Below are positions 8,225 to 31,468 of a stretch of DNA of 32,000 nucleotides, in pieces (position 1 is the first letter of the stretch; every line of letters begins with the position of its first letter). The notes under the pieces were generated by a model. The model searched no databases and was not told the DNA's origin. It worked only from the letters and a program-made list of their open reading frames with translations. The DNA is from Thermodesulfobacteriota bacterium (GTDB lineage Bacteria; Desulfobacterota; WTBG01; JAGOGO01). Made by a program: the position numbers and the translations under genes. The stretch spans positions 585,622 through 617,621 of the forward strand of contig CP113000.1 in NCBI GenBank assembly GCA_026625185.1, written 5' to 3'.

Positions 8225-8252
8225 AAAAAACCCCTGGAGTACCTTTACGGGG
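8225..8252 (-). terminator. Possible intrinsic terminator after the 566-aa GT-C gene
   Basis: The minus strand reads CCCCgtaaaggtactccaGGGG followed by TTTTTT. It lies about 58 nt after the stop at 8310. The stem is short (4 GC pairs plus 2 internal pairs), so this is tentative. Confidence 0.35.
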
Positions 8253-8309
8253 TAGAAATGTCACCGCTATCTTTCTTTTTTATCGAAGTCATGACTTCAA
8301 CCCGGCATC

Positions 8310-10010
8310 TTACTGCCTGGTAACGAAATGCACCAAAAGCAGAGGTGGGGCATCATTTTTCTCCGAGTCCTGATGTCTTAGAACCACCTCCAGTCTGAAG
8401 TGATCTTTTCCTAAAGCCGCTAGCCTTTCATAGATGTCTTGAGTGACAAGACAGTAACCCTGTTTTCTGGAAGCCAGTGCGGACACAACCGTCCGGGACT
8501 GTGGATTAAAATCCAACTTTACAAACTCGCGCCGCGCGTAGAAAGGAAGAGCGTCTTTGAGGAAAGTGAAATAAACCGGTTCATTTTCGGGCACAAGGCG
8601 GTTAATGCCCTGGGCAAAGCTGACAATGCTTCTTCGAGCGCTCAGCGGTGGTTCGAGCCAGCCGGAAATCCAGATTATACACAGCACTCCGGTTAAAACG
8701 AAAAGTTTAAAAGCCCTTTGAGGGCGCGAAAAAAGAAAACCGGAACCTATCAATGCTGGAATGGCAAGGCAGCCGCCCACGGCAAGAGTGTGCGTGAGAC
8801 TCGCTACTTCACGGGAATACATAGAGAAACCAACCCCGAAAGAGAAAAGCACACAGCCCAAAGAAAGCAACCCGGCCACAACCCAGCCAAAACGATCTAT
8901 CTTCCTGCTCTCAATTGTTTTCAGAAATTGCCGCAGCAGCACCGCCTCAATCACCCCCACGGCAGGAATCACCGGCAAGAGATGATGAATCGGCTGTTTG
9001 GCGCAAGCTGCAAAAAAAACGAAGGTTCCGGTCAGCCACAAGGAACAAAACCGCAGTCGTGACCAACTTTGCAATTTTCTTCCCCATACCGGCAAAAAAA
9101 GGGCCCCGACGCCTAAAATACTCCAGGGGTAGGTGAACCACGGCCAATTGCCCAAATGTTGGAAATAACCCCAACCATGATGCTCCTGGCTCGGAATCAC
9201 AGACAGTTTTACGTCAGCAATCAACTGTAGCAGAAAGTCTTTGTTCCATAACCAAAGCATTATCGGCCAGGCAAATGCGAACCCTATCACCATGAGCACT
9301 CCCCACCCCGGTCGCATCCGCACTCCCAACTGCCATTGATGCGACACCCATAGTTCCAGCACAATAGGTATGCTCACAATAACCAGCGCCAATGGCCCTT
9401 TGAACAAGCAGGCTAACGAAAGGCTGACATAAAAACCCCACCACGAAACTGACCACGGTCGGCCCTCCTTTTTCCAGACCAACCATAGCAGCAGAGCAAG
9501 GCCGGTAAAAAAGCTCAGCAATAAATCTTGGCTCGGCGAATGACATTGGGAAATAAAATACGGTGTGACGGCCAAAATCAAAGCGGCAATCCGTCCGGTT
9601 TCAGCGTCAAAAAGCCGGCGCGCTGTCGCCCAGGCCACAAAGATAATGCCCAAACCGGCAAGCGCGAACGGCAGTCGGAAGCCGAACTCATTTCGTCCCA
9701 GCAGCCGCATGCTTCCCACCGCGATCCAATCCGCAAACGGGGGTTTCAAAATCCGCGGTTTACCTTCTAATTGCGGCAACAGCCAATGGCCATGGTCGGT
9801 CACATCCGCCGCCGTGCCTGAGATCCGCCGCTCACGCAGATCCGTAATATCGCGCGACCCAAGAAAACAGAACACCGATACGATACAAACGACGCCGACC
9901 AACAGGTCCGCGTATTTTGACCAGAAAGGTGTGTCTTCTGGTTCCTTCCGGGAACATCGCAAAGCCTGCGATTGAGCGCAGCACGGTAGAAATCTAAAAA
10001 AAGTAGTCAA
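8310..10010 (-). CDS. GT-C fold, polyprenyl-phosphate-sugar-dependent glycosyltransferase, paralog 3, 566 aa
   Basis: Polytopic membrane protein. Its first-loop region DLRERRISGTAADVTDHGHWLLPQLEGKPRILKPPFADW is a divergent version of the ArnT/PMT motif, with the DE pair replaced by RE. The only start candidate at the ORF head is TTG 10010 and there is no upstream ATG, so the start is uncertain. Confidence 0.65.
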   Translation of the reverse strand: MTTFFRFLPCCAQSQALRCSRKEPEDTPFWSKYADLLVGVVCIVSVFCFLGSRDITDLRERRISGTAADVTDHGHWLLPQLEGKPRILKPPFADWIAVGSMRLLGRNEFGFRLPFALAGLGIIFVAWATARRLFDAETGRIAALILAVTPYFISQCHSPSQDLLLSFFTGLALLLWLVWKKEGRPWSVSWWGFYVSLSLACLFKGPLALVIVSIPIVLELWVSHQWQLGVRMRPGWGVLMVIGFAFAWPIMLWLWNKDFLLQLIADVKLSVIPSQEHHGWGYFQHLGNWPWFTYPWSILGVGALFLPVWGRKLQSWSRLRFCSLWLTGTFVFFAACAKQPIHHLLPVIPAVGVIEAVLLRQFLKTIESRKIDRFGWVVAGLLSLGCVLFSFGVGFSMYSREVASLTHTLAVGGCLAIPALIGSGFLFSRPQRAFKLFVLTGVLCIIWISGWLEPPLSARRSIVSFAQGINRLVPENEPVYFTFLKDALPFYARREFVKLDFNPQSRTVVSALASRKQGYCLVTQDIYERLAALGKDHFRLEVVLRHQDSEKNDAPPLLLVHFVTRQ

Positions 10011-10317: not shown

Positions 10318-11058
10318 TTATCTGCCATCAATTCTGAGTATTTTGGTTTTTTTGTCGATCATCCTCAAAGTGGCGTTCATCAATCCGCTAAGCAAAAACA
10401 GGATTAACCACAATTGATCCAGAACTAATCTACCATTGACAACTGAATCTCCCAGGATTTCTAAAAAAGTAAAAGATGCAATTATCGCCATAAACGTATC
10501 GTATTCCTTTCGAAGAGCAGTTCGAAAAGAAAATGCTAACTTTGGTGGTTTCCAATTTTTTAGCTTAGGTAAAAAGGTTGGCGTTTCGTGGGCCCATTTC
10601 AGATATTTTTCACTAAATGTTTTTTGCAAAAAGTTCTCCTCAGCAAAAATAATACGCTCATAATAAGTCCAGAAGACAAGCACAAACAGCGAGGTGACCC
10701 ACCACAATCGAAAAAAAAGCGATACTCCAAGGCCTATAACAAAATTCCCCAGATATAATGGGTGTTTGACGATAGAATATATTCCGGTAGTATTTAAAAA
10801 ATCTCCTTTCACCCGTTTAGTATTTCTTCCCGATGTTCCCTTGGGCACTGAGCCAACAGTAAAAAAACGAATTGCCAAGCCAAAAAGCGATATACTAACA
10901 CACCCAATTTCCCAGATATAATCCAGCCGATGACTTTGATAAGGATACTGGTAAACTTTAAAAGCCAGAAGAATTGGTGCGATCAGAAATAAAGGGAGAA
11001 AGCTTCTCCAGCGAAAAAGCCAGGTTCCAGAACTCTCCATATTTTCTCGCAGAGTCAT
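10318..11058 (-). CDS. ICMT/PEMT-family integral membrane methyltransferase (246 aa)
   Basis: The core TTGIYSIVKHPLYLGNF followed by YERIIFAEENFLQKTFSEKYLKWAHETPTFLP is the isoprenylcysteine carboxyl / phospholipid methyltransferase C-terminal signature. Multiple TM segments. GGAGG sits 9 nt upstream of ATG 11058; the track start 11061 is TTG. Confidence 0.8.
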   Translation of the reverse strand: MTLRENMESSGTWLFRWRSFLPLFLIAPILLAFKVYQYPYQSHRLDYIWEIGCVSISLFGLAIRFFTVGSVPKGTSGRNTKRVKGDFLNTTGIYSIVKHPLYLGNFVIGLGVSLFFRLWWVTSLFVLVFWTYYERIIFAEENFLQKTFSEKYLKWAHETPTFLPKLKNWKPPKLAFSFRTALRKEYDTFMAIIASFTFLEILGDSVVNGRLVLDQLWLILFLLSGLMNATLRMIDKKTKILRIDGR

Positions 11059-11111
11059 CAATGTATTCCTCCTATTTTTAGAATCTAATTTTAAATTATA
11101 ATTGGAAGAAC

Positions 11112-11149: not shown

Positions 11150-11162
11150 AAGAAAACGATAT

Positions 11163-12587
11163 TCAAGAGAGTGTGGCGGGAAGAATAACGGTAAAGGTGG
11201 TGCCTTGCTGAGGCGTACTTTTTACGTCAATGGTTCCCTGGTGGGCTTTCACAATCCATTGACAGATACTCAATCCAAGACCTACTCCGCCTGATAGACG
11301 GGAGCGGGATGTGTCCACCCGGTAAAATCGGTCGAATATATGGTGTAAATCATTGGTAGGTATTCCTATGCCTGTGTCTTTTATGACAACTGTTGCCTGG
11401 CATTTTCCCGGTTGTACTGTAAGACCAATATTCCCCCCATCAGGGGTATATTTTATGGCATTATCAATGAGGTTGCTGAAAAGCTGTTTCAGCTTTATGC
11501 GGTCGCCATTTATCAGTACCTCCTCCAAAGCCGAAAAGGTAAAACTGATTTTTTTCTGCATTGCCACAACATTGAAGGCCTCATAGAGTTCTTTAAGCAG
11601 TTCGGAAAAATTTAGATTTTCAATCTTGAGGCTTGCCTTGCCTTCGTCTGCCTGGGAGAGAATGAGGAGATCATTAACGAGCTTGGTCAAAAAATCAAGC
11701 CGTTCGAGATTATTGGCCAGGGCCTCTTGATACTCTTCTGAAGACCGTTTTCGGGAAAGAAAAACTTCAGTCTCACCTTTTAGAGCGGCAAGCGGAGTGC
11801 GCAACTCATGAGCGGCATCAGCAGTAAACCGGGTGAGTTTTTGAAAGGATTCTTCCAGACGTTCCATCATCTGATTGATGGTCATGGCCAGTCTGTCCAG
11901 ATCATCGTTACTTCCCTGCAAGGCCAGCCTTTCGCTCAGATTGCTGGCTGTTATTCGTTTGGTTGTTTCCGTAATTTTATCAATCGGGCGCAAAGATTTC
12001 CGGGATAAAAACCACCCTCCGATGGATCCGAAGATAAAGGCCAGAAAAAACGCCGTCAGAAGGTGTTCTCGAAAGTTTTCAATGGTTCTCTCCATGGGCA
12101 GAAGATAGGTTGCTATCTGAACAATATATTTTAATTCTCCGTTTTCCCGATAGAAATGAGTGCAGATGCGGAAAGGACTTTCCCCCTGAAGAACACTCAA
12201 TGTTGTATGAACAGGTTTTCGATACCTATTGTGATCAGGGAAAACTTTGGGAAAAACAAGTCCCGGTAACGTTAAAGAGGAAAAAAAATCCCTTTCATTT
12301 TGATCGAGCAATCGAAAAGCGATGGGGAAATATTTGCGGTTGGAGGCAACTTTCTCATATTCTCTTAATTCATCGTTTAAAGTTTCAGGATTTTCAAGTA
12401 TCACATTAATAATTTCCTTGGTCTCATCCACCAGCATCCGGTCAATCCCTTTAAGAAGATTACGGCGGAAGCGATAGTCTAAAAATCCAAAGATAAGGAT
12501 TATCATGGTCAAAAACGTTACCGTGTACCATAAGGCCATCCTCACATCGAGTCGTTTGTAAAATTTAATTTTTCCCTTTGAAGACAT
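11163..12587 (-). CDS. Sensor histidine kinase (2 TM, periplasmic domain of about 135 aa, HAMP, HisKA, HATPase_c)
   Basis: H-box FTADAAHELRTPLAAL, N-box LFSNLIDNAIKYTP, G1 VIKDTGIGIP, and G2 GGVGLGLSICQWIV. The overall style is that of the CusS/PmrB-type kinases that partner OmpR-family regulators. ATG 12587 has AAGGTG 6 nt upstream and overlaps the regulator gene by 23 nt. The track start 12596 is GTG. Confidence 0.9.
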   Translation of the reverse strand: MSSKGKIKFYKRLDVRMALWYTVTFLTMIILIFGFLDYRFRRNLLKGIDRMLVDETKEIINVILENPETLNDELREYEKVASNRKYFPIAFRLLDQNERDFFSSLTLPGLVFPKVFPDHNRYRKPVHTTLSVLQGESPFRICTHFYRENGELKYIVQIATYLLPMERTIENFREHLLTAFFLAFIFGSIGGWFLSRKSLRPIDKITETTKRITASNLSERLALQGSNDDLDRLAMTINQMMERLEESFQKLTRFTADAAHELRTPLAALKGETEVFLSRKRSSEEYQEALANNLERLDFLTKLVNDLLILSQADEGKASLKIENLNFSELLKELYEAFNVVAMQKKISFTFSALEEVLINGDRIKLKQLFSNLIDNAIKYTPDGGNIGLTVQPGKCQATVVIKDTGIGIPTNDLHHIFDRFYRVDTSRSRLSGGVGLGLSICQWIVKAHQGTIDVKSTPQQGTTFTVILPATLS

Positions 12588-13239
12588 ATCCGACACCTTT
12601 AACCGTATGAATTAGTTTTGGGGAGAAGTCTTTATCAATTTTAGCCCGGAGATGATTGATGTGGACATCAATAATATTGGTCATGGTGTCAAAATTATAA
12701 TTCCAGATGTGCTCGGAAAGCATGGTGCGGGTCAGAACCTGGCCGGGATTTCTCATAAAATATTCGAGTAGAGCGTATTCTTTTGGGGTAAGGTCAATAA
12801 GAGCATCCCCCCGCCTCACCTCTCGGCTGATTTGATTCAACGTTAAATCAGCATACTGCAAAAGGGGAGATACAACCTCTTTACCCCGACGAAGTATAGC
12901 CCTTATGCGCGCCAACAGCTCATGAAAAGAAAACGGCTTAACAATATAATCGTCAGCTCCTAAATTTAATCCATTCACTATGCTTCCTTCGGAGTCTTTG
13001 GCGGTAAGAAATATGACTGGGGTAGTATTTCCCCTTTCTCTTAAATGAAGAAGAATTTTATCCCCGCTCAAAACCGGGAGCATAATGTCCAGGATAATGA
13101 GGTCATAATTTTCTTGGGTTGCCAAATGAAGACCATCTTCGCCATTTTCCGCAATGTCCAAACTAAAAGAGTTTTCTTTTAACCCTTTTTCAATAAAACG
13201 GGCCACATTTTTATCGTCTTCCACCAACAAAATTCTCAT
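12565..13239 (-). CDS. OmpR/PhoB-family response regulator (receiver plus winged-helix domain)
   Basis: MRILLVEDD, ILDIMLP with the phospho-acceptor Asp, and LTAKD. The C-terminus LTPKEYALLEYFMRNPGQVLTRTMLSEHIWNYNFDTMTNIIDVHINHLRAKID..KLIHTVKGVGYVF is a canonical winged helix. Confidence 0.95.
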   Translation of the reverse strand: MRILLVEDDKNVARFIEKGLKENSFSLDIAENGEDGLHLATQENYDLIILDIMLPVLSGDKILLHLRERGNTTPVIFLTAKDSEGSIVNGLNLGADDYIVKPFSFHELLARIRAILRRGKEVVSPLLQYADLTLNQISREVRRGDALIDLTPKEYALLEYFMRNPGQVLTRTMLSEHIWNYNFDTMTNIIDVHINHLRAKIDKDFSPKLIHTVKGVGYVFKGKN

Positions 13240-13357: not shown

Positions 13358-14317
13358 CTAACGGAAAGCGCCACGCCGGTAAAGCCGCCAGAAAAGTACC
13401 ACCACTCCCACCACCGGAACCCGCCTCAAACGATGATCCATTTGAATCCTAACACCCGAATGCCGTTCTATCTTCCAAAGAACATAATCCAAGCCACCCT
13501 GGAAGGTATATAAGCTTTTAACAAGCTGAAGCAGTGAGAGTATCTTACCCTGGATACGGCGCAAACCCCACATAAGCCGGCTAAAAACGCGCGTCGGAGC
13601 CGGAATACCCGCCCGATAGCGATATACTTGATTGCCGCTTATAGCCTCCACAGAATAAGAAACTGAATTCATGGCAGCCCGAGTTAGTTCTTCGTAATGA
13701 CGTGGAGCAGAGTCAAACAGATCGGTAAGCTTATCACGTCGTTCTGCTCTCAGTTCAGTCCCATAGCTGAGCAAAAGTCCCGTGCACCACAATTCTCGGC
13801 TGGTAAATTGCTGTCGTGGCATGAGGGGCAGCACCCGAGTGATAAAGGTAAGCAGGGCTTGGGCCATTGTGGTGTATATCTGCTCTGCCACATGGTTGTT
13901 ACGCGCGTAGACAAGACCCATCGGCTGAGCCAGCCGACTCCACAGATAAGAGCGAAACCAGCGTGAGGCCCCTTGCTGAAAGTCCCTGAAACTAAAGACG
14001 GTATATTTACAGCGTCTCACGCCTTCTTCGAAAGGGATCTCAAAATAGAATACATTGGGTGGCAAAAGCCTATTCAAAAAAGCGTAGGAGTGTCTGTGGT
14101 AGGCGTGGCGATACCTGTCTACCACAAGGTATAAATCGACGATTCCGTTGCTGTCGTCACCGGTGCGGAAACAGGATCCATACAAAAGAATGGCCTGGGT
14201 GGCGTCGCGGTGGCGCCCAAGGATCTCTTCGGTGAGCGCTTTTATAGCGGGCGGGGACTTACGCAAGGTTTTTTGGCGGATGATGGTAATAAGTTCTGCT
14301 GGCGGGCTGATAATCAT
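13358..14317 (-). CDS. Tam41/Mmp37-like nucleotidyltransferase (candidate lipid-phosphate cytidylyltransferase), 319 aa
   Basis: LLYGSCFRTG..GIVDLYLVVD gives the polymerase-beta-type GS...D-x-D pattern. It is followed by PPNVFYFEI...CKYTVFS..DF, then YLWSRLAQPMGLVY, then LLLSYGTELRAERRDKL. This mirrors my recollection of the Tam41 family profile (YGS.., vyfn.., KYGV, YLAGRLQKPV, LSYxGDxR). The C-terminal tail is hydrophobic and basic. The call is from memory of the profile, not from a search. Confidence 0.5.
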   Translation of the reverse strand: MIISPPAELITIIRQKTLRKSPPAIKALTEEILGRHRDATQAILLYGSCFRTGDDSNGIVDLYLVVDRYRHAYHRHSYAFLNRLLPPNVFYFEIPFEEGVRRCKYTVFSFRDFQQGASRWFRSYLWSRLAQPMGLVYARNNHVAEQIYTTMAQALLTFITRVLPLMPRQQFTSRELWCTGLLLSYGTELRAERRDKLTDLFDSAPRHYEELTRAAMNSVSYSVEAISGNQVYRYRAGIPAPTRVFSRLMWGLRRIQGKILSLLQLVKSLYTFQGGLDYVLWKIERHSGVRIQMDHRLRRVPVVGVVVLFWRLYRRGAFR

Positions 14318-15342
14318 AATTTTAAAAAGGAGGCCTTTCCACCTTCCGTTATGATGAGTTCGGTTGCCTGATTACCCAGGTCATAAAGCTCCCCGTCGAG
14401 GGTGAAGCCGCCGGTAAGTGTGAGCCGTACTTCCCGAGTTTTTCGACTGAAGTATCCATTCTCCGGTGAGCAGAAACGACCTTTTTGACCGCGCAGCAAG
14501 GCCGGTAACGTCCGCAGCAAATACCGTGGCTGGTTGCCGAGTGCGGTGTAGTAAAATACTCCGGTTTCCCCACTCCAGTAAGGTCGTATCCCAAGGAACA
14601 GGCGTTCAAGGGTGCTGATGAGAATTAAGAGGAACTCACGTTCCTCCGAAGGCTCACCGTTCAAGCTAACAGTGGCCCGGGTCGGGGAAAGCAACTTTTT
14701 GTCCATGCGCGCTGCGGCTAACAGAAATCGGCCTAACGTCACACCTGCGGCCAGTTCGCCGCTCACGCCCTTGCTGTGCACCCGATCAAGGCAGAACCGA
14801 ATTCCCTGGCAGATGCCGGCTGCTCCCAAAAACATCCCGTAGAGAGGTTTCTGATCGGGTGTTCCTTCCACTTTCAATAAAGGCCGTTGTACAACAGCCG
14901 CGCTACCGTAGCCGGTGCTGATCCAGGTCAAAAGCCTGCTCAGCGCTTTTCGCGCAGAACCGGATAACCCAACATCCCTGGCAATCATGCTCGCCGTGCC
15001 TGATCGCAAGAGCGCGAGCAAGGGCAGTGGCCCAGGTGATGGCTGTCCGAAAAACTCCGTGAGAACAGCGTGGATGGTGCCGTCACCTCCGTTTACCGCC
15101 ACAACGTCCACTTTGCTCCGAGCGAATTCAGCCAGAGCTGATCCTACTTCTGAAGGTGTGATCGCCTCACGATGGAATACTTGGGGTCGCCTAGCCAGGA
15201 TTTTACGGATGATAGGTAGGCCTTTCCGGTTGCCACCGCTCAGGGGATTACTGATCAAACCGAGGCTGAGCGTTTTGCCGGGCTTCAAAATGGAGGACTC
15301 AGGCAATTGATCGGTTTGAAAAATTTTGGGATCGTCACTCAT
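14314..15342 (-). CDS. DAGK-catalytic-domain lipid kinase (YegS/LCB5/sphingosine-ceramide kinase-like)
   Basis: ISNPLSGGNRKG plus VAVNGGDGTIHAV form the diacylglycerol-kinase catalytic-domain signature. Start is taken at ATG 15342 (MSDDPKIF), 13 nt after the upstream stop; the track start 15420 would overlap the upstream gene by 65 nt. The stop overlaps the next ATG as ATGA at 14314-14317. Confidence 0.8.
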   Translation of the reverse strand: MSDDPKIFQTDQLPESSILKPGKTLSLGLISNPLSGGNRKGLPIIRKILARRPQVFHREAITPSEVGSALAEFARSKVDVVAVNGGDGTIHAVLTEFFGQPSPGPLPLLALLRSGTASMIARDVGLSGSARKALSRLLTWISTGYGSAAVVQRPLLKVEGTPDQKPLYGMFLGAAGICQGIRFCLDRVHSKGVSGELAAGVTLGRFLLAAARMDKKLLSPTRATVSLNGEPSEEREFLLILISTLERLFLGIRPYWSGETGVFYYTALGNQPRYLLRTLPALLRGQKGRFCSPENGYFSRKTREVRLTLTGGFTLDGELYDLGNQATELIITEGGKASFLKL

Positions 15343-15355
15343 CGGTGTCCGGTTA

Positions 15356-16576
15356 TTACTTTGCCGGTCGTTGGGTGAACAGCTTCGCTGCCAATGATTT
15401 ATCATAGGCAGCCTGGTCAATTTCCAACATCCAGGTGCGCAACGGGCCGGAGGTTATCCGGGTAAAAGCGGCCATGCCCAGTCGAATCATCAGAAAAAGA
15501 CTGGTTACCGCGGTCCAGATGGCTACTGCCAATAAACCCAGATCACTGTGCCCGGTAAGGGCGCCGGTCGTCAGCAGGATGAGGTTGGGGTTGCGTCTCG
15601 CGGTAATGAGCCGGAAATACGAGTCCACCGGACGCCAGATGAATATTACAAAAGTTCCCAAAAAATTCTTGAAAACAAGTTCTACCAGACGCCCCACGAT
15701 ATAGCCTGCGATGATCACCCATAATACCGTATCCAAAGATATATCCGGCGATCCCACCTGGGAAGCGCCCAGACCAAGTCCCCAGGCTACGTACCAAACT
15801 GGCGGGTGCAGGAGGTCAATCAGATGATCAAAAAGATGCCCGAACCGAGTAGACGTTATGGTTACGCGGGCCAATTTTCCGTCAACCGTGTCCAGGAAGG
15901 TCATCACCCACCCGGCCAGCAATCCCCAACCGAACTGGCCGCGGGCAAACAACACTGCAGCCAGGATGACCAGCACGAAGCCTATCAAAGTAACCTGGTT
16001 AGGGCTCATGCCGAGATTCGCGCACACTTTTGTGCACCACTGAGCCGGACGCGGCCATACCCATTTGGTCACCAGGTCGGTCACCCCCTTGTAGGACCCG
16101 GCAAAAAGGCGTTGTTCCAGCTCACCACGGTTTATTTCGGTAATGGGTAGAACAAAAGGCGGATCTGACTTTTTGAGGCGCCTATGATAGGACGAAGAGA
16201 GGGTCTCCGGGATTTCGGTTCTAATGCCGGGCAAGGATGTCTCAGGGGATCGGCTGCTCAGGAGTTCCCGCGCTTGCAATGCGCAGCTCGATCGCACCTG
16301 GGCAGCGACCGGTACTCGTGCCCCGTCCGGACCGGCCTGGAGCACCACGTCGGTCATCTCAATCAGACTGTTGATCACCCGATCGTCATAAAGGTAATCA
16401 CCGCGGATTAATAATACTGAACTTTGCGGTGGAATGGATTCAAGATTTTCTAAAAAATCGACTTCGCCCGCGTGCCTGAGCGCTCGCTCCAAGCGCTGGC
16501 GGGAGGACAATCCCCAAAGTGTGATCGGGCTATCACAAAAAATATAGGCGTAGGTCGGCATCAATGAACCTTTCAT
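15356..16576 (-). CDS. CDP-alcohol phosphatidyltransferase family protein with an extra cytoplasmic N-terminal domain of about 150 aa
   Basis: The full CDP-alcohol motif is present: DTVDGKLAR-VTITSTRF-GHLFDHLID, that is D-x2-DG-x2-AR-x8-G-x3-D-x3-D. About 6 TM segments follow. The N-terminal domain is soluble. ATG 16561 (AAAGG 7 nt upstream) is an alternative to ATG 16576. Confidence 0.9.
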   Translation of the reverse strand: MKGSLMPTYAYIFCDSPITLWGLSSRQRLERALRHAGEVDFLENLESIPPQSSVLLIRGDYLYDDRVINSLIEMTDVVLQAGPDGARVPVAAQVRSSCALQARELLSSRSPETSLPGIRTEIPETLSSSYHRRLKKSDPPFVLPITEINRGELEQRLFAGSYKGVTDLVTKWVWPRPAQWCTKVCANLGMSPNQVTLIGFVLVILAAVLFARGQFGWGLLAGWVMTFLDTVDGKLARVTITSTRFGHLFDHLIDLLHPPVWYVAWGLGLGASQVGSPDISLDTVLWVIIAGYIVGRLVELVFKNFLGTFVIFIWRPVDSYFRLITARRNPNLILLTTGALTGHSDLGLLAVAIWTAVTSLFLMIRLGMAAFTRITSGPLRTWMLEIDQAAYDKSLAAKLFTQRPAK

Positions 16577-16873
16577 AAAAAATTGCTGTTAAAACCCTCC
16601 TTGGCCACGGGCCGGCGCAAAAAAAGTCTGGAATTAATCAAAGATAATATTATATAATAAAAATATAAAACTTGTAAAGTCCTATCGGTTAAAAACCCGT
16701 GGAGGTTAAAATCAAAGGTATTCTGGAATGTTATAAGGCTTTCCGATCCAAAAAAATCTCTTTTTTAGATATACTCTGAATGATGGTACCGGAAAATATT
16801 TTATGCACCAATTATAGTGAGCAACATAAATAAAGAGGCATTCTTCTTTTGCCATGCCGTAGCCCTCGCTATT

Positions 16874-17082: not shown

Positions 17083-18063
17083 GTGAACAGGTTTAAGGTG
17101 GAAAAAAAGCTTCCGTCTAACTACGAGGAGGTGTTTAGGCTTATTCATCTTTCCGATCCCCACTTGTTTTCAATAACCAATGTGCGGTTACGGGAGCTGC
17201 TGAATAAAAGAGTTTATGCCTATTTTTCCTGGCGCCTGCACCGGCAAGCTGAGCATTGTGGTGAAGTTCTCGCCGCTTTGCTAAAAGACATGCAATCCCT
17301 CAAACCCGATCATATCGTTCTCACCGGGGATTTGACACACATGGGCCTGCCGAGCGAGTTTCGTCAGGCGCAAGAAATGCTTCAGTCCCTGGGGCCGCCC
17401 TCAAAGGTAATGGTAATACCTGGCAATCATGACACCTATGTTGCCACAGCGTGGGAGCGCACGTTTCGCCTCTGGTCAGATTACCTGGCCTCCGATGCAG
17501 ACCATTGTTTCCCGGAAGCAGCAAAGGCACGCAATATTGTTTTTCCCACCTTACGAGTCCGCGGCCCCATTGCCCTTATTGGTGTTTCCACTGCCTGCCC
17601 CACTATACCGTTTCTCGCTACCGGCAGCATCGGCAAAGTGCAGATGAAGAAGCTTGAAAATATTCTTGACGAGACACGGCGTAGACACCTTTTGAGAGTG
17701 GTGCTGATCCACCACCCACCGGTTCCTGGGGCGGTTTCCTGGCGGAAACGACTTACGGACCAGGCAGCATTCCAAGCGCTTCTGGCGCGCCATGGCGCTG
17801 AACTCATTTTGCATGGTCATACCCATCGCACTTATTTAGGACATCTTGAGACGCCTGGGGGCAGAGTTTTTTCAATCGGTGTCCCGTCAGCGTCATCCCT
17901 CGGCCGCACAGCACATCGACGGGCTCGATACCATGTCTTTCGTCTGATACGAACTGAGAGTGGACTGGAGATGCTGCTTACAGTGAGAGTTTACTCGCCA
18001 ACAAAACAACGATTCATCGATGAAGACGAACAGCAGGTGCCGTTGCCTCAACCGACCGGCTGA
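17083..18063 (+). CDS. Calcineurin-like metallophosphoesterase (326 aa)
   Basis: The metal-binding motifs appear in order: HLSDPHL, LTGDLTHMG, IPGNHD, LIHHPP, LHGHTH. The start is GTG 17083 or GTG 17098, with no ATG nearby. Confidence 0.85.
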   Translation: MNRFKVEKKLPSNYEEVFRLIHLSDPHLFSITNVRLRELLNKRVYAYFSWRLHRQAEHCGEVLAALLKDMQSLKPDHIVLTGDLTHMGLPSEFRQAQEMLQSLGPPSKVMVIPGNHDTYVATAWERTFRLWSDYLASDADHCFPEAAKARNIVFPTLRVRGPIALIGVSTACPTIPFLATGSIGKVQMKKLENILDETRRRHLLRVVLIHHPPVPGAVSWRKRLTDQAAFQALLARHGAELILHGHTHRTYLGHLETPGGRVFSIGVPSASSLGRTAHRRARYHVFRLIRTESGLEMLLTVRVYSPTKQRFIDEDEQQVPLPQPTG

Positions 18064-18263: not shown

Positions 18264-19343
18264 TCATGCCGGGCTATGGGCGTGGGACAGGAACCCAAGA
18301 GCGAGACAGAAGATTACCGCAACCGGTGCCAGTGCGACGAGCGCCAGGTTTAAACCAAAAATCAGTCCGAGGTTCCCAAGAATCTGATTGAGAAAATACA
18401 CCCCAATACCGACGATTCCCCCGATCATTATCCTGAATCCAGCAGTATGCTTGCGGGTTGATCCAAAGACGAAGGTAAGGGAGAGCAAAACCAGGGCAGC
18501 CGTGGACAGAGGGGTGCTTACCTTTTGCCAGAATAATAACTCGTATTGATCGGAATTTTGCCCGGTCTCCCGCAGTAACTGAATATACTGGTAAAGGTCA
18601 GAGGGCGATTGAATTGCCGGCGGAACTTCCTGAATTGTCATCTGCTCTGCACTGAGTACCGATTCACGGGTGAGACTGGGGAGGCGCTTGGTGGTCACCC
18701 CCTGGGGAGTAATGACCTTCTGCTCGACATCGGTGAGCACCCATTGGTTGTTTTTGGTAACAACAGCTTTTCGAGCGTGGGTGAATACGCGGAGACGCCT
18801 CTCTTGGTCCCATTCGAAAATGTCAACGTTTTCCGGAAGTACGCCGGCGTGGATTTTGCTGACGTGGATAAAGACGGATCCGTTGCGCGCCCAAAAACCG
18901 TTGGTGGTAAACGTGATATCAGCAGCGTTGCTGAGCGCAATCAAACGCCCTGTCCGTGCCTGCTGCTCCATGGGCGGCACAATAAACTCTGCCAGGATTC
19001 CCGATGCCAGCATGGGAAGCGTGGCGGCCGCAAGGACTGCCCAGCAGATTCGACGCACCGATATGCCGCCGGCTTGCATGGCGACGAGTTCATTTTTGTC
19101 CGCCAGCAGTCCAAGGGCTATGACTCCCCCCAGGAGGCAGCTTTGCGGTATCAGGTCCAGTAGTCGGCCCGGCAGTGTGAGAAGCACATAAGATACGGCA
19201 TCCGTAAGCTGATAGTGTCCTTTTCCCACATCATCCAGTTCAAGGATAAACTCAAAAAAACTGAACAGAAATCCCAAGATGGACAGTACCAGCAGAAAAC
19301 ATCGAGTGAAACTTTTGCCGATATAGAGATCAATTATTTTCAT
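18264..19343 (-). CDS. lptG: LptG, LPS export ABC permease (YjgP/YjgQ family)
   Basis: IDLYIGKSF at the N-terminus, ELVAMQAGGIS, and NGFWARNGSVFIHVSKI parallel E. coli LptG (LDRYIGK, ELVVMQASGF, GLWAKDGNNFVYIERV). It directly follows lptF. ATG 19343 is preferred over TTG 19367. Confidence 0.85.
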   Translation of the reverse strand: MKIIDLYIGKSFTRCFLLVLSILGFLFSFFEFILELDDVGKGHYQLTDAVSYVLLTLPGRLLDLIPQSCLLGGVIALGLLADKNELVAMQAGGISVRRICWAVLAAATLPMLASGILAEFIVPPMEQQARTGRLIALSNAADITFTTNGFWARNGSVFIHVSKIHAGVLPENVDIFEWDQERRLRVFTHARKAVVTKNNQWVLTDVEQKVITPQGVTTKRLPSLTRESVLSAEQMTIQEVPPAIQSPSDLYQYIQLLRETGQNSDQYELLFWQKVSTPLSTAALVLLSLTFVFGSTRKHTAGFRIMIGGIVGIGVYFLNQILGNLGLIFGLNLALVALAPVAVIFCLALGFLSHAHSPA

Positions 19344-19406
19344 CACCAAGCACGCAATATAAGACAATAGAAAAATTTTTCATAAACGGTGGTAACAACA
19401 ATATGA

Positions 19407-20501
19407 TTACCGACATCGTGGGTGAGACCAGCACTGCTGAGACGGATTAAGCAGAAGGATGAGCAGGACCACGGCCAGCAATCCTTGTACCCACCAAATA
19501 CCCAACCATGGGGGAATCTGGCTTTGTTGCACCCCGAGTTTGGCCACGGTGACGATGCTGTAATAAAATCCGTAAATGATTATACCAATGGGAAGATTGG
19601 CATGTTTGCCCTTGCGTGTTTCTATCCGGCTCAGAGGCACACCGAGGAGCGCCAGAAGGAGCGTGGAAAGCGGAGATAACATCCGCCACTGTAGCTCAGC
19701 GATGTCTGAAGGGTTTTTAGAACGCGCTAGGTAAAAAGTTGAGGCGGCCTTTGTTTTGTATTCCAAGGGGGTAATTTCTTTGGGCCATAAAGAAACCGTG
19801 TACTGCGCCGATTCCATAACGCGCCCTTTTCCTTCTCCGGTGCGAGGCAATTCATAACGACAGGCGTTCAGAAAGAAGATGACTTGTCTGCCGGTGGCCG
19901 GGTCAAGACGCTGATAGGCCTCCTTTGCGTAGACGACTTCCAGCAGATCATTTCCCTCTTTCGGATCTTTTTCCATGAAGACCCCCTCCGCTCTCTGCCT
20001 TGTTTGGTCAATTTTCTCAATAAAGATGAACCGATCCCCTTCGCCGATTTTATAAAACCTGCCTGCTTTCAATCTGGTGACGTCAAACTCGGCCTTTGCT
20101 TTGGCTTTCAACCAGAAAAATTGTTCGTAGGCCCATGGCCGCACGGCGAGCGATAAGCTCCCCCCCAGGAGCGCTACCGGTAAGGACAAAACAAAAACGA
20201 CTGCCAGCACCCGACAAAGAGACACGCCGGAAGCAAAGAGCGCCGTCATTTCATTATCATTATAGAGTCGCCCTATACCGACTATGACCGAAAGGTAAAG
20301 GCTGGTGGGAAGAACTACCTCCAGGGCGATCAATACCTTGAGCAGAATAATGAATATGATTGTCTTTATGGACATAAGGCCGAAGGTTGCATCTGCAAGG
20401 TAGCGATTTGTGCTGTGTGCTGCGAAGATTATCACCAAAACCGCAACCATGCTTATCAGCGGCTTGATTATTTCGGCTATGAGGTAACGATTTAAGATCA
20501 A
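19407..20501 (-). CDS. lptF: LptF, LPS export ABC permease (YjgP/YjgQ family)
   Basis: ILNRYLIAEIIKP at the N-terminus, NEMTALFASGVS, a periplasmic beta-jellyroll-length insert, and 6 TM segments. The only start that preserves the conserved N-terminus is TTG 20501. Confidence 0.85.
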   Translation of the reverse strand: MILNRYLIAEIIKPLISMVAVLVIIFAAHSTNRYLADATFGLMSIKTIIFIILLKVLIALEVVLPTSLYLSVIVGIGRLYNDNEMTALFASGVSLCRVLAVVFVLSLPVALLGGSLSLAVRPWAYEQFFWLKAKAKAEFDVTRLKAGRFYKIGEGDRFIFIEKIDQTRQRAEGVFMEKDPKEGNDLLEVVYAKEAYQRLDPATGRQVIFFLNACRYELPRTGEGKGRVMESAQYTVSLWPKEITPLEYKTKAASTFYLARSKNPSDIAELQWRMLSPLSTLLLALLGVPLSRIETRKGKHANLPIGIIIYGFYYSIVTVAKLGVQQSQIPPWLGIWWVQGLLAVVLLILLLNPSQQCWSHPRCR

Positions 20502-21218: not shown

Positions 21219-22397
21219 GTGAAGCAACTTATCCAACCTCCGGCCGCACAAAACGCCCGGACCGATCATACCCTCCGGATCGCACGAGTTGAGGGACGGA
21301 GTGGTTTTCGTCAATTCATCCGCCTTCCTTGGTCTCTATATGGCGATGACCCGATGTGGGTCCCGCCGCTTCTCATTGAGCGGCGCCGGCACCTTTCCCC
21401 CCGCAATCCTTTTTTCGCGCACGCCCAATACTGTTCCTGGCTAGCGTACCGTGGATTGCGGCCCGTGGGCCGTATCAGCGCCCAAGTTGACGAACTTCAT
21501 ATTCAGCACCATCGAGACGCCACCGGTTTTTTCGGAATGATAGAGGCTGAAAACGACGCCACGACGTTCCGGGCCCTCACCGATACCGCTGAGCAGTGGC
21601 TCCGCGGCAAGGGGATGCGCCGCATTATCGGCCCACTCAATCTTTCCCTAAACCAGGAAGGTGGGTTGCTGGTAGAAGGGTTCGACACCCCCCCCTCAAT
21701 CATGATGGGCCATGCGCACCGTTATTATGGTCAACGGATCGAGGAGCAAGGCTATCGCAAGGAAAAGGAACTGCTTGCATACCTTGTCAATATTGAATGT
21801 AATTGGCCTCCCTTGGTACGAAAAATTGCAGCAAAAGCGCCCCAAGACGTGCTTCTCCGACCGTTGTGCATGTCCCGTTTCACCGAAGAATTGGAGACTC
21901 TGCAGGGTATTTTCAATGACGCATGGTCCCAAAACTGGGGTTTTATCCCGTTCACCAAGGCGGAATTCCAACATATGGGGCAGGATATTAAACACCTGGT
22001 GGATAAGGAATTCGTGCAGATCGCAGAAGTAAACGGAGACCCCGCTGGGATGATCGTGGTGCTCCCAAACATCAATGAAGTTATCCGGGACCTCAACGGG
22101 CGGCTTCTCCCCTTCGGCTGGATGAAATTGCTCTGGCGTCTCAAGGTGAGATACCCGACTTCTGGGCGGGTCCCCCTTATGGGAGTGTGCCGGCGCTATC
22201 AGGAGAGCATGCTCGGGTCTGCGCTCGCCTTCATGCTTATAGATGCGGCACGCGTCCCCGCCCTCAGGCGCGGTATGCGGGAAGTTGAGATGTCCTGGAT
22301 ACTTGAAGACAATATGAGGATACGGAACATTATCGAATCCATCGGTGGCAAAGTATACAAACGCTACCGAATATATGGAAAAGAACTTTATGAATGA
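21219..22397 (+). CDS. GNAT-fold N-acyltransferase, candidate bacterial ceramide synthase (bCerS-like), 392 aa
   Basis: F-QFIRLPWSLYGDDPMWVPPLLIERR, NPFF-HA...WLAYR...VGRISAQVD, and the C-terminus SWILEDNMRIRNIIESIGGKVYKRYRIYGKEL. I recognise this roughly 390-aa architecture as a family usually annotated as N-acetyltransferase. The ceramide synthase role is inferred from context. GTG start. Confidence 0.5.
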   Translation: MKQLIQPPAAQNARTDHTLRIARVEGRSGFRQFIRLPWSLYGDDPMWVPPLLIERRRHLSPRNPFFAHAQYCSWLAYRGLRPVGRISAQVDELHIQHHRDATGFFGMIEAENDATTFRALTDTAEQWLRGKGMRRIIGPLNLSLNQEGGLLVEGFDTPPSIMMGHAHRYYGQRIEEQGYRKEKELLAYLVNIECNWPPLVRKIAAKAPQDVLLRPLCMSRFTEELETLQGIFNDAWSQNWGFIPFTKAEFQHMGQDIKHLVDKEFVQIAEVNGDPAGMIVVLPNINEVIRDLNGRLLPFGWMKLLWRLKVRYPTSGRVPLMGVCRRYQESMLGSALAFMLIDAARVPALRRGMREVEMSWILEDNMRIRNIIESIGGKVYKRYRIYGKELYE

Positions 22398-22547
22398 CGG
22401 CATCGTAAAAAGCCCATCTGCTGCGTTGCACCGCATCCTCAGTCATTGCGGCGTACCGGTAAGTACGCCTCATTCCTTCGGATTTGCGCGCCTTGCATCC
22501 GGAGCTTTTTACTTCGCCATCCAAATTCGACATTTTACGAGTTCATC

Positions 22548-23348
22548 ATGAATAGAACGAAAAAAACCTTCACCGCCGTGGTGCTGGCAGCGGACCGCGG
22601 TCCCAATGATCCCCTGGCCCGGACAGCGGGTGTTTCCTGTAAATCTTTTGTTCACTTGGGAGGAAGGCCTATGGTGCTGCGCGTGCTCGACACGCTTGCC
22701 GGGACCCGGGAAGTAGACTCCCTGGCGGTATGCGGTCCTTCCGAGGCCTTGCTTGCCCAGGAGCCTGAACTGCTCTCCAGAATTAATGCAGGTAAGATCA
22801 GATGGATTCCCCCTCAGGCAACCCCCAGTGCAAGCACGTACCACGTGTTGGAGGGGCTCCCCCCGGACGTTCCCGTGCTCGTCACCACCGCTGATCACGC
22901 GTTTTTGACCGCCGAGGTAGTCGACTTCTTTTGCGGCAAGGCCCGTGCCACCGGTTGTGACGTTGTCGCCGGTCTTGCCCCCCATGAGCAGGTCATACGC
23001 GCATTTCCCCGGACCAGAAGAACCGCTACCAGGTTGCGTGACGGTGCTTTTTGTTCATGTAACCTCTTCGCCTTTTTGACTCCACGGGCACGCAGGGCCG
23101 CAGAGTTTTGGCAAAAATGCGAACGCAACCGCAAGAAACCCTGGCGAATGATGCGGGTAATCGGTTGGCCGGTTGTGGTCCGATATTTGCTGGGAACGCT
23201 GTCCCTGGAGGAAGGCTTGAGGAGGTTGTCAGCCCGCATGAATGTCAAGGCAGGAGTGGTTATCATGCCTTTTCCCGAAGCGGCCGTCGATGTGGACACG
23301 GTCAGTGATTGGCGTTTGGCGGAAGAAGTCCTCGCTGGTCGAGGGTAA
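22548..23348 (+). CDS. MobA-like NTP-transferase-domain protein (266 aa)
   Basis: The N-terminus FTAVVLAADRGPNDPLA...CKSFVHLGGRPMVLRVLDTL and a later VLVTTADHAFL resemble the MobA/CofC/CobY-type nucleotidyltransferase fold. ATG 22548 is preferred over TTG 22446, whose extension is low-complexity. Confidence 0.55.
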   Translation: MNRTKKTFTAVVLAADRGPNDPLARTAGVSCKSFVHLGGRPMVLRVLDTLAGTREVDSLAVCGPSEALLAQEPELLSRINAGKIRWIPPQATPSASTYHVLEGLPPDVPVLVTTADHAFLTAEVVDFFCGKARATGCDVVAGLAPHEQVIRAFPRTRRTATRLRDGAFCSCNLFAFLTPRARRAAEFWQKCERNRKKPWRMMRVIGWPVVVRYLLGTLSLEEGLRRLSARMNVKAGVVIMPFPEAAVDVDTVSDWRLAEEVLAGRG

Positions 23349-23453: not shown

Positions 23454-24278
23454 TTACCTGCACTCTGCGACGGATTCTTCCGTGCACGCGCTCACCATGT
23501 GTGCCGCACTCTTCAAATCCGCAGGAAAATCGACCTCACAGCTCCGCAGACCTTCAATTGAACATGTCCAAACCTTCATGGTGGGACACAAATCTCGAAT
23601 TACGGACAAGTACCATTTCCGGGAAGACGAAGGATCGCCCATGGCTTTTTCAAGCCCTTGGCGGAAAAGAGCCGGGCCTTCCCCCCGAAAAAGGATCATC
23701 CCCACTGACTCGCCGTCCGTCTTTTCGGGATCGAGATCTTTGCCGATGTTGATGAGTCTTTGTCCTTCCAGGGTCACTTTCATGTCATCGGCGTCGTAGT
23801 GGGACTTGTACGTGATCACTACGGTCACCGGGTGTACGGCTCTACTCAGCACCCGCCGTACCACCCCGGCTTCGAACAACGTGTCCCCGTTAAGCAGGAA
23901 AAAATCTTCATTCATCTCGTCCCGAGCCATCCAGCAACTGACGAGGTTGTCCGTTTCGGCAAACTTAGGGTTTTGGATAAGAGTAATGCGACCCACGCCA
24001 TAGCGCTGGGTCAAAAGCCGCTCAACCTGATCAGCGCCATAACCGACAACTACGCTTACTCGGTCTATCCCGGTGACAAGCAGTGTATCGATCTGCCACT
24101 CAATCAATTTTTTCCCCTGAATGGGCAAGAGACATTTCGGAGTTTCAGCCGTAAGCGGCAACAATCGTTTTCCCTGGCCGGCACTTAAAATAATAGTTTT
24201 AATAAACAGCCTCCCTAAAATAATTGTTTCACTCGGAGAATGGAAAAACGCCTCGCCTTTAGGTAAAGGCTTAAGCAA
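23454..24278 (-). CDS. LicC/IPCT-like cytidylyltransferase (sugar- or alcohol-phosphate nucleotidyltransferase)
   Basis: IILSAGQGKRLLPLTAETPKCLLPIQGKKLIEWQIDTL, VVVGYGADQVERLL, N-KFAETDNLVSCW and FFLLNGDTLF are colinear with pneumococcal LicC as I recall it. The start is ambiguous: TTG 24278 has no SD, whereas ATT 24203 lies 6 nt after GGGAGG. Confidence 0.75.
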   Translation of the reverse strand: MLKPLPKGEAFFHSPSETIILGRLFIKTIILSAGQGKRLLPLTAETPKCLLPIQGKKLIEWQIDTLLVTGIDRVSVVVGYGADQVERLLTQRYGVGRITLIQNPKFAETDNLVSCWMARDEMNEDFFLLNGDTLFEAGVVRRVLSRAVHPVTVVITYKSHYDADDMKVTLEGQRLINIGKDLDPEKTDGESVGMILFRGEGPALFRQGLEKAMGDPSSSRKWYLSVIRDLCPTMKVWTCSIEGLRSCEVDFPADLKSAAHMVSACTEESVAECR

Positions 24279-29662: not shown

Positions 29663-29725
29663 AAAGGATTGCCACGCCGGGCTTCGCCACTTGCGCCCTC
29701 CCGAAATTACGAGGTACTCATACAT

Positions 29726-31468
29726 ATGCGCCTACTGATAACCTTCGTCCGAAAGTACCCCCGCCATAGCGTGATTACGCTGTTTGCTTTGCTGCTGGCC
29801 GGTGCGGCGGAAGGTTTCGGCCTTACCGGAATTCTTACGTTGATTAGCCGTATTGGCGGCAATGGGATTTTGAAGGGCTCGCTATCGAAGGGAGGTTCTT
29901 TTCCACTGGCGCATTATTTGACAAATGCTCTTGCCGCGTTAGGCCTGAGCCCTACGATCGGCATGCTGCTGGCGGTGTTGGTCGCCGGTTTTGCGGTGAA
30001 AAGCGTATTCATGCTGTTGGCCAACAAGCGGGTCGGCTATACGGTTGCCCATGTCGCCACCGACCTGCGTCTTGCGTTGCTTCGCGCGCTCCTTACCACC
30101 CGCTGGGAATACTATCTTGGCCAACCGGTAGGCGCTCTTGCCAATTCATTCGCTACCGAAGCTTCGCGCGCGTCTCATGGGTATGAGTCGGGCGCTAAAA
30201 TGGCGGCGCTTTGCATACAAGCCATAATCTATCTGATAATCGGCCTTTGCCTCTCCTGGAAAGCGATGCTCGCCTCCATGGCCGCCGGGGCGATTATTCT
30301 TTTTGGATTAAGCCATTTCGTGCGAATGTCTCGGCGCGCCGGCCGCCGTCAAACATCACTGCTTCAGTCCTCGCTCGCACGTCTGACCGACAGCCTCCAA
30401 TCAATAAAACCGCTCAAGGCCATGGCGCGTGAGGAGCTGGCCGATGCTGTGCTGGTTACCGAAACCAAGCTCCTGAACAAGGCTATGAAAAAAGATGTGT
30501 TCAGCAAGGAGGCCCTGAAATCTTTTCAGGAGCCGATGGTTACCGGTTTACTGGGATTTGGAATTTTTGTGGCGCTTGAATTTTTGGCCTTACCGCTGGC
30601 TTCCATAATGGGTTTGGTATTTGTAATCGCCAACATGGTGACCAAGCTGAACAAGGTGCAGCAGGAGTATCAGAAAATGGTCACTTTTGAAAGCGCCTAT
30701 TGGTCATTGCAGGAAAAGATCAAGAATTGCGAGCATGAGCAGGAAGAGGTTTTAGGAACTGCCAAAGCATCGCTTGAGCGAAGCGTTTGCATGGATCACG
30801 TCAGTTTCAAATATGGGAAGCATTGGGTATTGCAGGAAGCGTCCCTGGAATTGCCTGCCGGGTTTTTTACCGCTATTACCGGGTCATCAGGAACCGGAAA
30901 AACCACGGTGGCTGACCTTCTGATCGGGCTGCTTCGGCCTCAGAAGGGGCAGATATTGATTGATGGTCAGCCCCTTTCCACGATAGACATTAAAAGCTGG
31001 CGGCGGATGATCGGTTATGTACCGCAGGAGACCCTGCTTTTGCACGATACCGTGATGAAAAACGTGACGCTCGGCGCTTCTGACTTAAGCGAAAAAGACG
31101 TTGAAAACGCCCTGATTGCGGCGGGCATTTGGGATTTCGTGGCAACCATGCCGCAAGGGATGCACACCACTGTTGGCGAGCGCGGAGGCAAACTCTCAGG
31201 CGGTCAGCGGCAGCGGATCGCCATCGCCCGGGCGCTTGTCCATAAGCCGTCGTTGCTGATTCTGGATGAAGCGACCAGCGGCCTGGATCCCGAAACCGAA
31301 AAGCGCATCTGCGACACCTTGCGAGGACTCCGGGGAAAACTTACGATTCTCGCTATTTCTCATCAACCTGCCCTGATAAATGCCGCTGACCGGGCTTACC
31401 ACATCAAGGATGAAAGGGCGGTTTTAACCGTAAACCCAACCGACATCGGGGCTGATTCGAAAGCATAG
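29726..31468 (+). CDS. MsbA-like ABC exporter, fused TMD-NBD half-transporter
   Basis: N-terminal 6-TM ABC_membrane region. Walker A GSSGTGKTT, signature LSGGQRQR, Walker B LLILDEATSGLD, and H-loop ILAISH. ATG 29726 (GAGGT 10 nt upstream) is preferred over TTG 29669. Confidence 0.9.
   Translation: MRLLITFVRKYPRHSVITLFALLLAGAAEGFGLTGILTLISRIGGNGILKGSLSKGGSFPLAHYLTNALAALGLSPTIGMLLAVLVAGFAVKSVFMLLANKRVGYTVAHVATDLRLALLRALLTTRWEYYLGQPVGALANSFATEASRASHGYESGAKMAALCIQAIIYLIIGLCLSWKAMLASMAAGAIILFGLSHFVRMSRRAGRRQTSLLQSSLARLTDSLQSIKPLKAMAREELADAVLVTETKLLNKAMKKDVFSKEALKSFQEPMVTGLLGFGIFVALEFLALPLASIMGLVFVIANMVTKLNKVQQEYQKMVTFESAYWSLQEKIKNCEHEQEEVLGTAKASLERSVCMDHVSFKYGKHWVLQEASLELPAGFFTAITGSSGTGKTTVADLLIGLLRPQKGQILIDGQPLSTIDIKSWRRMIGYVPQETLLLHDTVMKNVTLGASDLSEKDVENALIAAGIWDFVATMPQGMHTTVGERGGKLSGGQRQRIAIARALVHKPSLLILDEATSGLDPETEKRICDTLRGLRGKLTILAISHQPALINAADRAYHIKDERAVLTVNPTDIGADSKA

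Follow-up and report, generated by a model that had tools for sequence, protein, structure and literature searches.

Three translationally coupled genes in a 32,000-nucleotide stretch of Thermodesulfobacteriota DNA (contig CP113000.1, positions 585,622 to 617,621; hereafter the window) are very probably the Thermodesulfobacteriota version of Caulobacter cpgA-cpgB-cpgC, set in a complete cluster for the synthesis and export of an anionic phosphosphingolipid of the ceramide (di)phosphoglycerate type. A first-pass annotation of the window had read the triad as a possible new head-group pathway; the same families in the same order have already been published as cpgA-cpgB-cpgC (PMC9393093, PMC11324152). 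The triad is a known system rather than a new pathway: a cpg phosphosphingolipid cluster in a new phylum-level setting.

In Caulobacter, CCNA_01217 (CpgA) carries a PgsA/PF01066 domain, CCNA_01218 (CpgB) is a ceramide kinase and CCNA_01219 (CpgC) acts after ceramide-1-phosphate (PMC9393093). The ΔcpgB mutant keeps neutral ceramide and loses ceramide-1-phosphate, ceramide phosphoglycerate (CPG) and CPG2, the species with a second phosphoglycerate; ΔcpgC keeps ceramide-1-phosphate and loses CPG and CPG2, and ΔcpgA keeps CPG and loses only the second phosphoglycerate (PMC9393093). In a cpgA/cpgB double mutant, cpgB alone restored CPG (PMC11324152). The Caulobacter cluster also encodes a calcineurin-type phosphoesterase (CC_1158), LptF/G homologues (CC_1155/56), a MobA/CofC-like protein (CC_1153) and the nucleotidyltransferase CC_1152 (PMC11324152). 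The last of these, CpgD, made CDP-glycerate in vitro, which is the proposed donor for CpgA (PMC12275187). The mechanism of CpgC was still described as 'unidentified' in a May 2026 preprint.

In the window, the genes for the transferase (15356..16576), the kinase (14314..15342, counted from its ATG) and the Tam41-like protein (13358..14317) all lie on the minus strand. The 13-nt gap between the transferase and kinase genes (15343-15355) and the ATGA start/stop overlap of the kinase and Tam41-like genes (14314-14317) are present in the letters as first described, and Pfam searches and predicted folds bear out all three families that had been named (CDP-alcohol transferase, DAGK-type kinase and Tam41-like protein). 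The 319-aa product of the last gene is 100% identical to OS130_02835, and the source is a Thermodesulfobacteriota metagenome-assembled genome (MAG). Public gene calls place the transferase start five codons later, at 16561, giving a 401-aa protein (P0271), and the kinase ATG has no clear Shine-Dalgarno sequence ahead of it. About 70 nt upstream of the transferase start, within a 506-bp divergent intergenic region, a promoter-like TTTACA-18-TATAAT (16649..16678, minus strand) matches 11 of 12 consensus positions, a consensus match only. An Rfam scan of the window returned zero matches.

Tam41 is the mitochondrial CDP-diacylglycerol synthase, which makes CDP-diacylglycerol from CTP and phosphatidic acid. 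The CpgC-like 319-aa protein of the window consists of a nucleotidyltransferase domain, a winged-helix-like middle and a basic C-terminal helical region. It scored 23.7 bits against PF09139 Tam41_Mmp37 (E = 3.7e-5), 0.3 bits under the cut-off of 24; its homologues P0124 (34.3 bits) and P0156 (26.6 bits) passed, and many homologues carry a precomputed PF09139 match. An AlphaFold model based on 25 homologues (predicted local distance difference test score, pLDDT, 82.6; predicted template-modelling score, pTM, 0.82) returned Tam41 as all of its top five Foldseek matches in the PDB (Schizosaccharomyces pombe 6ig2/6ig4 and Firmicutes 7ecd; E = 2.5e-11 to 2e-9, TM 0.50-0.60), followed by aminoglycoside nucleotidyltransferases at TM ~0.3. 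The profile of the family found Tam41 in the PDB at E = 3e-4, and its hhalign alignment with two solved Tam41 sequences had 85% probability (E = 6e-6). The solved sequences were taken from the PDB matches; a human TAMM41 sequence served as a probe only. A 117-aa fragment of the nucleotidyltransferase domain gave zero phmmer matches in the PDB. The near-cut-off Pfam score, the Foldseek ranking and the hhalign alignment bear out the resemblance to Tam41/Mmp37 that had initially been seen in the order of the motifs.

Within the family, D61, K104, Y105, W120, Y124, R128, P132, Y185, E188, R190 and E192 are invariant in 25 aligned sequences, and by inspection S184 is conserved in all 25. In 6ig2 and 7ecd, the residues aligned with D61, K104-Y105, W120, Y124, R128, P132, S184-Y185, E188, R190 and E192 are likewise invariant. 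The alignment to solved Tam41 is ambiguous at the second metal-binding acidic position (D67/R68), and the G-S motif region of the N-terminal nucleotidyltransferase falls outside the block aligned by hhalign. Shared with Tam41/Mmp37 (6ig2, 6ig4, 7ecd) are the nucleotidyltransferase plus winged-helix fold, the basic C-terminal helical region, the conserved KY, W, Y, GR-x-x-x-P, LSY, acidic, R and E positions and, likely, the reaction type, CMP transfer onto a lipid phosphomonoester. The differences are that identity between the two is only 15-18%, that Caulobacter genetics indicate ceramide-1-phosphate, not phosphatidic acid, for the counterpart there, and that the last 80 residues, which are basic, unusually conserved and include WKIERHSG and FWRLYRRGAFR, show far more conservation than mere membrane anchoring would require. 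P0536 of Nitrosomonas oligotropha is 38% identical to the window protein (E = 2e-73). A literature search with Tam41 and sphingolipid terms found none in main texts; the relevant sentence stands in the supplement of PMC11324152, whose S1 Text already pointed out the Tam41 domain (IPR015222) of CC_1161.

The CpgB-like lipid (ceramide) kinase, 342 aa, passed PF00781 DAGK_cat (42.9 bits, cut-off 23.6) and carries GGDGT at aa 85-89 (window 15076-15090), so that its assignment to the DAGK catalytic family stands. Against NCBIfam YegS and other equivalogs it scored under the cut-offs. The N. oligotropha counterpart is 28% identical (E = 3e-36); in N. eutropha the corresponding protein, Neut_1105, is tabulated as the orthologue of CC_1160.

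The CpgA-like transferase, 406 aa, scored 43.9 bits against PF01066 CDP-OH_P_transf (cut-off 22). It contains the perfect CDP-alcohol phosphatidyltransferase motif claimed for it, DTVDGKLARVTITSTRFGHLFDHLID (D-x2-D-G-x2-A-R-x8-G-x3-D-x3-D; window 15815-15892, aa 229-254), the residues of which are invariant across 27 homologues. A cytosolic N-terminal nucleotidyltransferase-like domain of ~170 aa is followed by a helical membrane catalytic region of ~220 aa with three strongly hydrophobic stretches in a simple hydropathy scan. Comparison with AfDIPPS, as the first-pass annotation had suggested, yielded a fold match: the best Foldseek hit of the AlphaFold2 model (pLDDT 76) was Archaeoglobus fulgidus AF2299 (4o6m/4o6n, E = 1.7e-10 across 386 columns, full length), with AfIPCT-DIPPS (4mnd) at E = 4e-8. 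Against the NCBIfam equivalogs for phosphatidylinositol-phosphate (PIP) synthase, archaetidylinositol-phosphate (AIP) synthase and IPCT-DIPPS, the protein reached 49, 46 and 33 bits (cut-offs 180, 170 and 580). It resembles PIP, AIP and DIPP synthases in fold but is not a member of those equivalogs.

Like AF2299 and IPCT-DIPPS (4o6m, 4mnd), the transferase fuses a nucleotidyltransferase-like N-domain to a membrane CDP-alcohol phosphotransferase with the same motif, although identity to them is only 12-18%. Unlike in IPCT-DIPPS, the cytidylyltransferase is encoded by a separate gene and a lipid, not inositol phosphate, is the presumed acceptor. Because the N-domain is also shorter and its match to IPCT is weak (E about 0.03), it is probably not catalytic. 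AF2299 and IPCT-DIPPS, its closest folds, both use soluble CDP-alcohols. The transferase is 45% identical to its N. oligotropha counterpart. In one Nitrospirales MAG (locus L076), two copies of a CpgA-like transferase gene (7725-8924 and 11161-12360) stand on either side of the kinase/Tam41-like pair.

The neighbourhood of the triad matches the Caulobacter cluster CC_1152-CC_1168 (Zik 2022, PMC9393093; Olea-Ozuna 2024, PMC11324152; Dhakephalkar 2025, PMC12275187) at the family level, both in the order PF01066 transferase, DAGK-type ceramide kinase and Tam41-domain protein and in the flanking genes. Divergent from the operon is a calcineurin-type metallophosphoesterase of the CC_1158 family (17083..18063, plus strand; PF00149, 66.4 bits). 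An LptG-like (18264-19367) and an LptF-like permease (19407-20501), both on the minus strand, are the counterparts of CC_1155/CC_1156 (PF03739, 224 and 206 bits for the pair). On the plus strand follow a candidate bacterial ceramide synthase (bCerS) of the CC_1154 family (21219..22397), which had zero Pfam or NCBIfam matches and shares 50% identity with a 370-aa protein of N. oligotropha at the Neut_1100 position, and a MobA/CofC-like nucleotidyltransferase of the CC_1153 family (22446..23348; PF12804, 52.8 bits), whose true start is likely an internal ATG near 22548 and whose best PDB match is the uncharacterised TTHA0179 (2dpw, E = 2e-24). A 274-aa LicC/IMPCT-like cytidylyltransferase (23454..24278, minus strand; PF00483, 49.5 bits; IPCT half of NF041135, 61 bits) matched LicC (1jyk, 7e-18) and Thermotoga maritima IMPCT (4jd0, 1e-12). 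The latter is the top structural neighbour reported for CpgD (PMC12275187), for which structural homology to choline-phosphate cytidylyltransferase, the enzyme class of LicC, has also been reported; this similarity makes the gene a candidate counterpart of CpgD (CC_1152).

Further along the plus strand lie a fatty acyl-AMP ligase (FAAL; 25252-27039; NF006624, 778 bits), a CerR-like short-chain dehydrogenase/reductase (27228-28169; PF01370, 97.8 bits), an acyl carrier protein (ACP; 28212-28463; PF00550, 42.8 bits) and a serine palmitoyltransferase (SPT; 28463-29662; NF047599, 610 bits, cut-off 500). Every enzyme family of CC_1152-CC_1165 is thus matched in the window except the HIT protein CC_1157; no homologue of CC_1157, CC_1167 or LptC2 was seen in the window. 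The window also differs from Caulobacter in its host, which is a Thermodesulfobacteriota MAG and not one of the alpha-, beta- or gammaproteobacteria, and in having an MsbA-like ABC exporter, a candidate lipid flippase (29669..31468, plus strand; PF00664 and PF00005), where Caulobacter has the MOP-type putative flippase CC_1166. The exporter gene adjoins SPT in five related loci as well (L030, L041, L043, L055 and L066), and it also occurs in L051, where SPT was not detected.

The bridge between the two clusters is Nitrosomonas. At locus L081 of N. oligotropha the order is 370-aa protein, NTP_transf_3, LptF, LptG, CDP-OH transferase, DAGK and Tam41-like protein, and seven window proteins are collinear with these at 50, 42, 34, 32, 45, 28 and 38% identity, respectively. 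The same arrangement in N. eutropha, Neut_1100-1106, consists of published orthologues of CC_1154, 1153, 1156/55, 1159, 1160 and 1161, with 25-41% identity to CCNA_01217-01219 for the triad in the published table, and the Nitrosomonas cluster is predicted to make CPG2 (PMC11324152). In contrast to the window, Nitrosomonas has no adjacent phosphoesterase, and its spt, ACP, reductase, FAAL and cpgD homologues lie elsewhere in the genome.

Among species-representative genomes, at least 594 loci with a Tam41-like protein came up in a scan, and the best 80 were analysed. These came mostly from Desulfobacterota MAGs, with the isolate NaphS2 (L041) among them; two protein clusters from the homologue searches contained Arhodomonas, Longimicrobiales and an alphaproteobacterial MAG, but not Caulobacter. 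The kinase gene is directly upstream of the Tam41-like gene in 70 of the 73 related loci with enough upstream sequence, an adjacency that argues against chance pairing. Related loci, like Nitrosomonas, also keep the order transferase, kinase, Tam41-like protein. One metagenomic protein (P0168, 662 aa) appears to be a natural fusion of a ceramide-kinase-like part (aa 10-334) and a Tam41-like part (aa 351-660); as the two genes usually overlap by 4 nt, it may be a frameshift artefact.

We scored gene presence within 10 kb in the 47 loci that had 7 kb or more of upstream sequence. The kinase was present in 44 and the phosphoesterase in 45, the latter in the same position as in the window; among the proteobacteria of PMC11324152, by comparison, Caulobacter alone was reported to have CC_1158. 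The link to ceramide genes proposed for the window, where five types lie between 21219 and 29662, extends to its relatives, 40 of the 47 carrying at least one ceramide-synthesis gene. The MobA/CofC-like gene was found in 38, including 17 of the 22 loci that lack the transferase. The transferase itself occurred in 25 loci and the cytidylyltransferase in 20: both in 20, transferase only in 5, cytidylyltransferase only in none and neither in 22 (Fisher P = 9e-9, uncorrected for phylogeny). Along a neighbour-joining tree built from the Tam41-like protein, the two genes each change state at least six times and largely in the same places, the exceptions being the five transferase-only loci. All 22 loci without the transferase keep the kinase and Tam41-like genes. 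In such loci the phosphoesterase and kinase genes are ~230 bp apart (for example, L021), a spacing that leaves no room for an overlooked transferase gene, and no CDP-alcohol or phospholipase D-type enzyme was found among their unassigned open reading frames. Transferase-less clusters repeatedly contain an LpxL-type lipid A acyltransferase (PF03279, 188 bits): L011 (2525-3445), L034 (7837-8787), L040, L049 and L062 (about 6.8-7.9 kb). Other recurrent families among the unassigned reading frames were a MarR-like regulator (seven loci) and a radical SAM protein (three loci).

This distribution bears directly on how the operon works. The first-pass annotation had favoured a linear series: ceramide-1-phosphate from the kinase is converted to CDP-ceramide by the Tam41-like protein, and the operon's own transferase then joins this CDP-lipid to an alcohol, giving the first head group. 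In its favour, the chemistry is self-consistent and a single operon couples the three genes; the best NCBIfam and Foldseek neighbours of the transferase include PIP synthases, whose donor is a CDP-lipid; and five loci have the transferase with no cytidylyltransferase nearby. We nevertheless consider this series unlikely, as a transferase that consumes CDP-ceramide fits poorly with the genetics and the distribution: CPG persists in Caulobacter ΔcpgA and returns with cpgB alone in the cpgA/cpgB mutant (PMC9393093, PMC11324152), 22 of the 47 loci retain the kinase and Tam41-like genes without the transferase, the transferase co-varies with the enzyme for a soluble donor, and its full-length architecture is that of AF2299 and DIPPS. 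The competing model in the same annotation, in which the transferase uses ceramide and a soluble CDP-alcohol made by the enzyme at 23454..24278, fared better in part. Co-variation supports the soluble donor; the acceptor, however, is probably a lipid that already bears a head group, not ceramide.

It is also improbable, if slightly less so, that the same enzymes attach a different polar head (phosphocholine, inositol phosphate or phosphoethanolamine) and that the product is not CPG2. The best PDB match of the cytidylyltransferase is the phosphocholine cytidylyltransferase LicC (7e-18), and the best NCBIfam matches of the transferase are AIP and PIP synthases. Yet those NCBIfam matches are all far under their cut-offs, the window lacks genes for an inositol-phosphate synthase or for a choline or ethanolamine kinase, and CpgD, whose specificity residues are Met147 and Lys161, also resembles IMPCT and choline-phosphate cytidylyltransferases while using phosphoglycerate. 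The collinear Nitrosomonas cluster with its predicted CPG2 product (PMC11324152) also speaks for glycerate. Family-level annotations alone would suggest something else again, a glycerophospholipid pathway composed of a diacylglycerol kinase, a CdsA-independent Tam41-type CDP-diacylglycerol synthase and a transferase like PIP or phosphatidylglycerophosphate synthase; CC_1160 is reported to phosphorylate diacylglycerol as well as ceramide (PMC11324152), and a UniRef name of the Nitrosomonas homologue is 'Phosphatidate cytidylyltransferase'. We rejected this pathway as highly improbable given the presence of ceramide genes, conserved in order, less than 10 kb away in 40 of 47 loci, and the specific loss of sphingolipid species in mutants of the Caulobacter counterparts (PMC9393093).

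Some observations weigh against the cpgABC assignment or its details. Homology to CCNA_01217-01219 is transitive, resting on sequence comparison via Nitrosomonas and on published BLAST tables, and the head group in this lineage could differ from glycerate. Absence of the transferase was scored within 10 kb only, so that the gene could sit elsewhere, as in Sphingomonas wittichii. The five loci with a transferase and no cytidylyltransferase nearby do not follow the pairing, and the MobA/CofC-like gene accompanies the kinase/Tam41-like core, although its deletion in Caulobacter abolishes CPG2 alone (PMC11324152). The analysis brought out no enzyme that would turn CDP-ceramide into the first head group.

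Taken with the Caulobacter genetics, the distribution in 47 loci points to the kinase and Tam41-like protein as a core module and to the transferase and cytidylyltransferase as a separable add-on. In the proposed cpg pathway, the SPT, ACP, FAAL, bCerS and CerR-like enzymes would, from their family membership, make ceramide, which the kinase would phosphorylate to ceramide-1-phosphate, as has been shown biochemically for Caulobacter CpgB. The CpgC-like enzyme would then act on ceramide-1-phosphate to start the first head group, a step established genetically in Caulobacter, most likely by transferring CMP from CTP to give CDP-ceramide. The cytidylyltransferase (23454-24278) would supply a soluble CDP-donor, which is CDP-glycerate in Caulobacter, and the CpgA-like transferase would add a further phospho-head group from it, as proposed in Caulobacter and as co-variation supports; the add-on module probably uses such a soluble donor. 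Dedicated LptF/G paralogues and the ABC exporter would carry the finished lipid to the outer membrane.

For the CpgC step, CMP transfer from CTP to a lipid phosphomonoester is, to our knowledge, the only known Tam41 chemistry; because of this and the conserved Tam41 core residues, conversion of ceramide-1-phosphate and CTP to CDP-ceramide is the most economical reaction. By analogy with Tam41, we tentatively suggest, at somewhat less than even odds, that the CpgC family may be a CTP:ceramide-1-phosphate cytidylyltransferase making CDP-ceramide, with the first head group then coming from an enzyme outside the cluster, for example a housekeeping CDP-alcohol transferase. Such resolution of CDP-ceramide outside the cluster would explain that the first head group does not require CpgA, that the kinase/Tam41-like pair occurs without the transferase in about half of the loci, and that Zymomonas, with cpgB and cpgC and no cpgA, reportedly accumulates ceramide-phosphoglycerol. 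The term CDP-ceramide was not found in the literature searched.

Other features of the window lie on either side of the cluster or within it. Between the cytidylyltransferase and FAAL genes, ~970 bp (24279-25251; GC about 0.40) contain no open reading frame longer than 65 aa and no Rfam match. On the other side of the triad, 118 nt downstream of the Tam41-like gene, genes for an OmpR-type response regulator and a HAMP/HisKA histidine kinase (11163-13239, minus strand) stand between the cpg-like operon and a full Arn set for lipid A aminoarabinose modification (986-10010, minus strand); they are missing from this place in almost all related loci. The Arn set comprises an ArnD-like deacetylase, an ArnA-like formyltransferase/decarboxylase, an ArnC-like GT2 protein, an ArnB-like aminotransferase and two ArnT-like PMT_2 proteins. 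A membrane methyltransferase of the PEMT/ICMT family (10318-11061, minus strand) lies between the two-component system and the ArnT-like genes. Genes for cationic lipid A modification thus adjoin an anionic sphingolipid cluster, CPG2 being the polymyxin target in Caulobacter, and the two-component pair could co-regulate envelope charge.

Earlier published comparisons covered alpha-, beta- and gammaproteobacteria in detail, and Desulfobacterota had been flagged as possible sphingolipid producers without head-group analysis (PMC11334938). The loci described here indicate a wide distribution in Desulfobacterota of the Caulobacter-type machinery for anionic phosphosphingolipids, a polymyxin target that can partly stand in for lipopolysaccharide. 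The machinery is also found in Nitrospirales, Gemmatimonadota-like and many gammaproteobacterial lineages. Its modular distribution, a core pair with an optional pair, independently supports the two-step model from Caulobacter genetics, and the conservation of the Tam41 core residues narrows the question of CpgC to one reaction on ceramide-1-phosphate.

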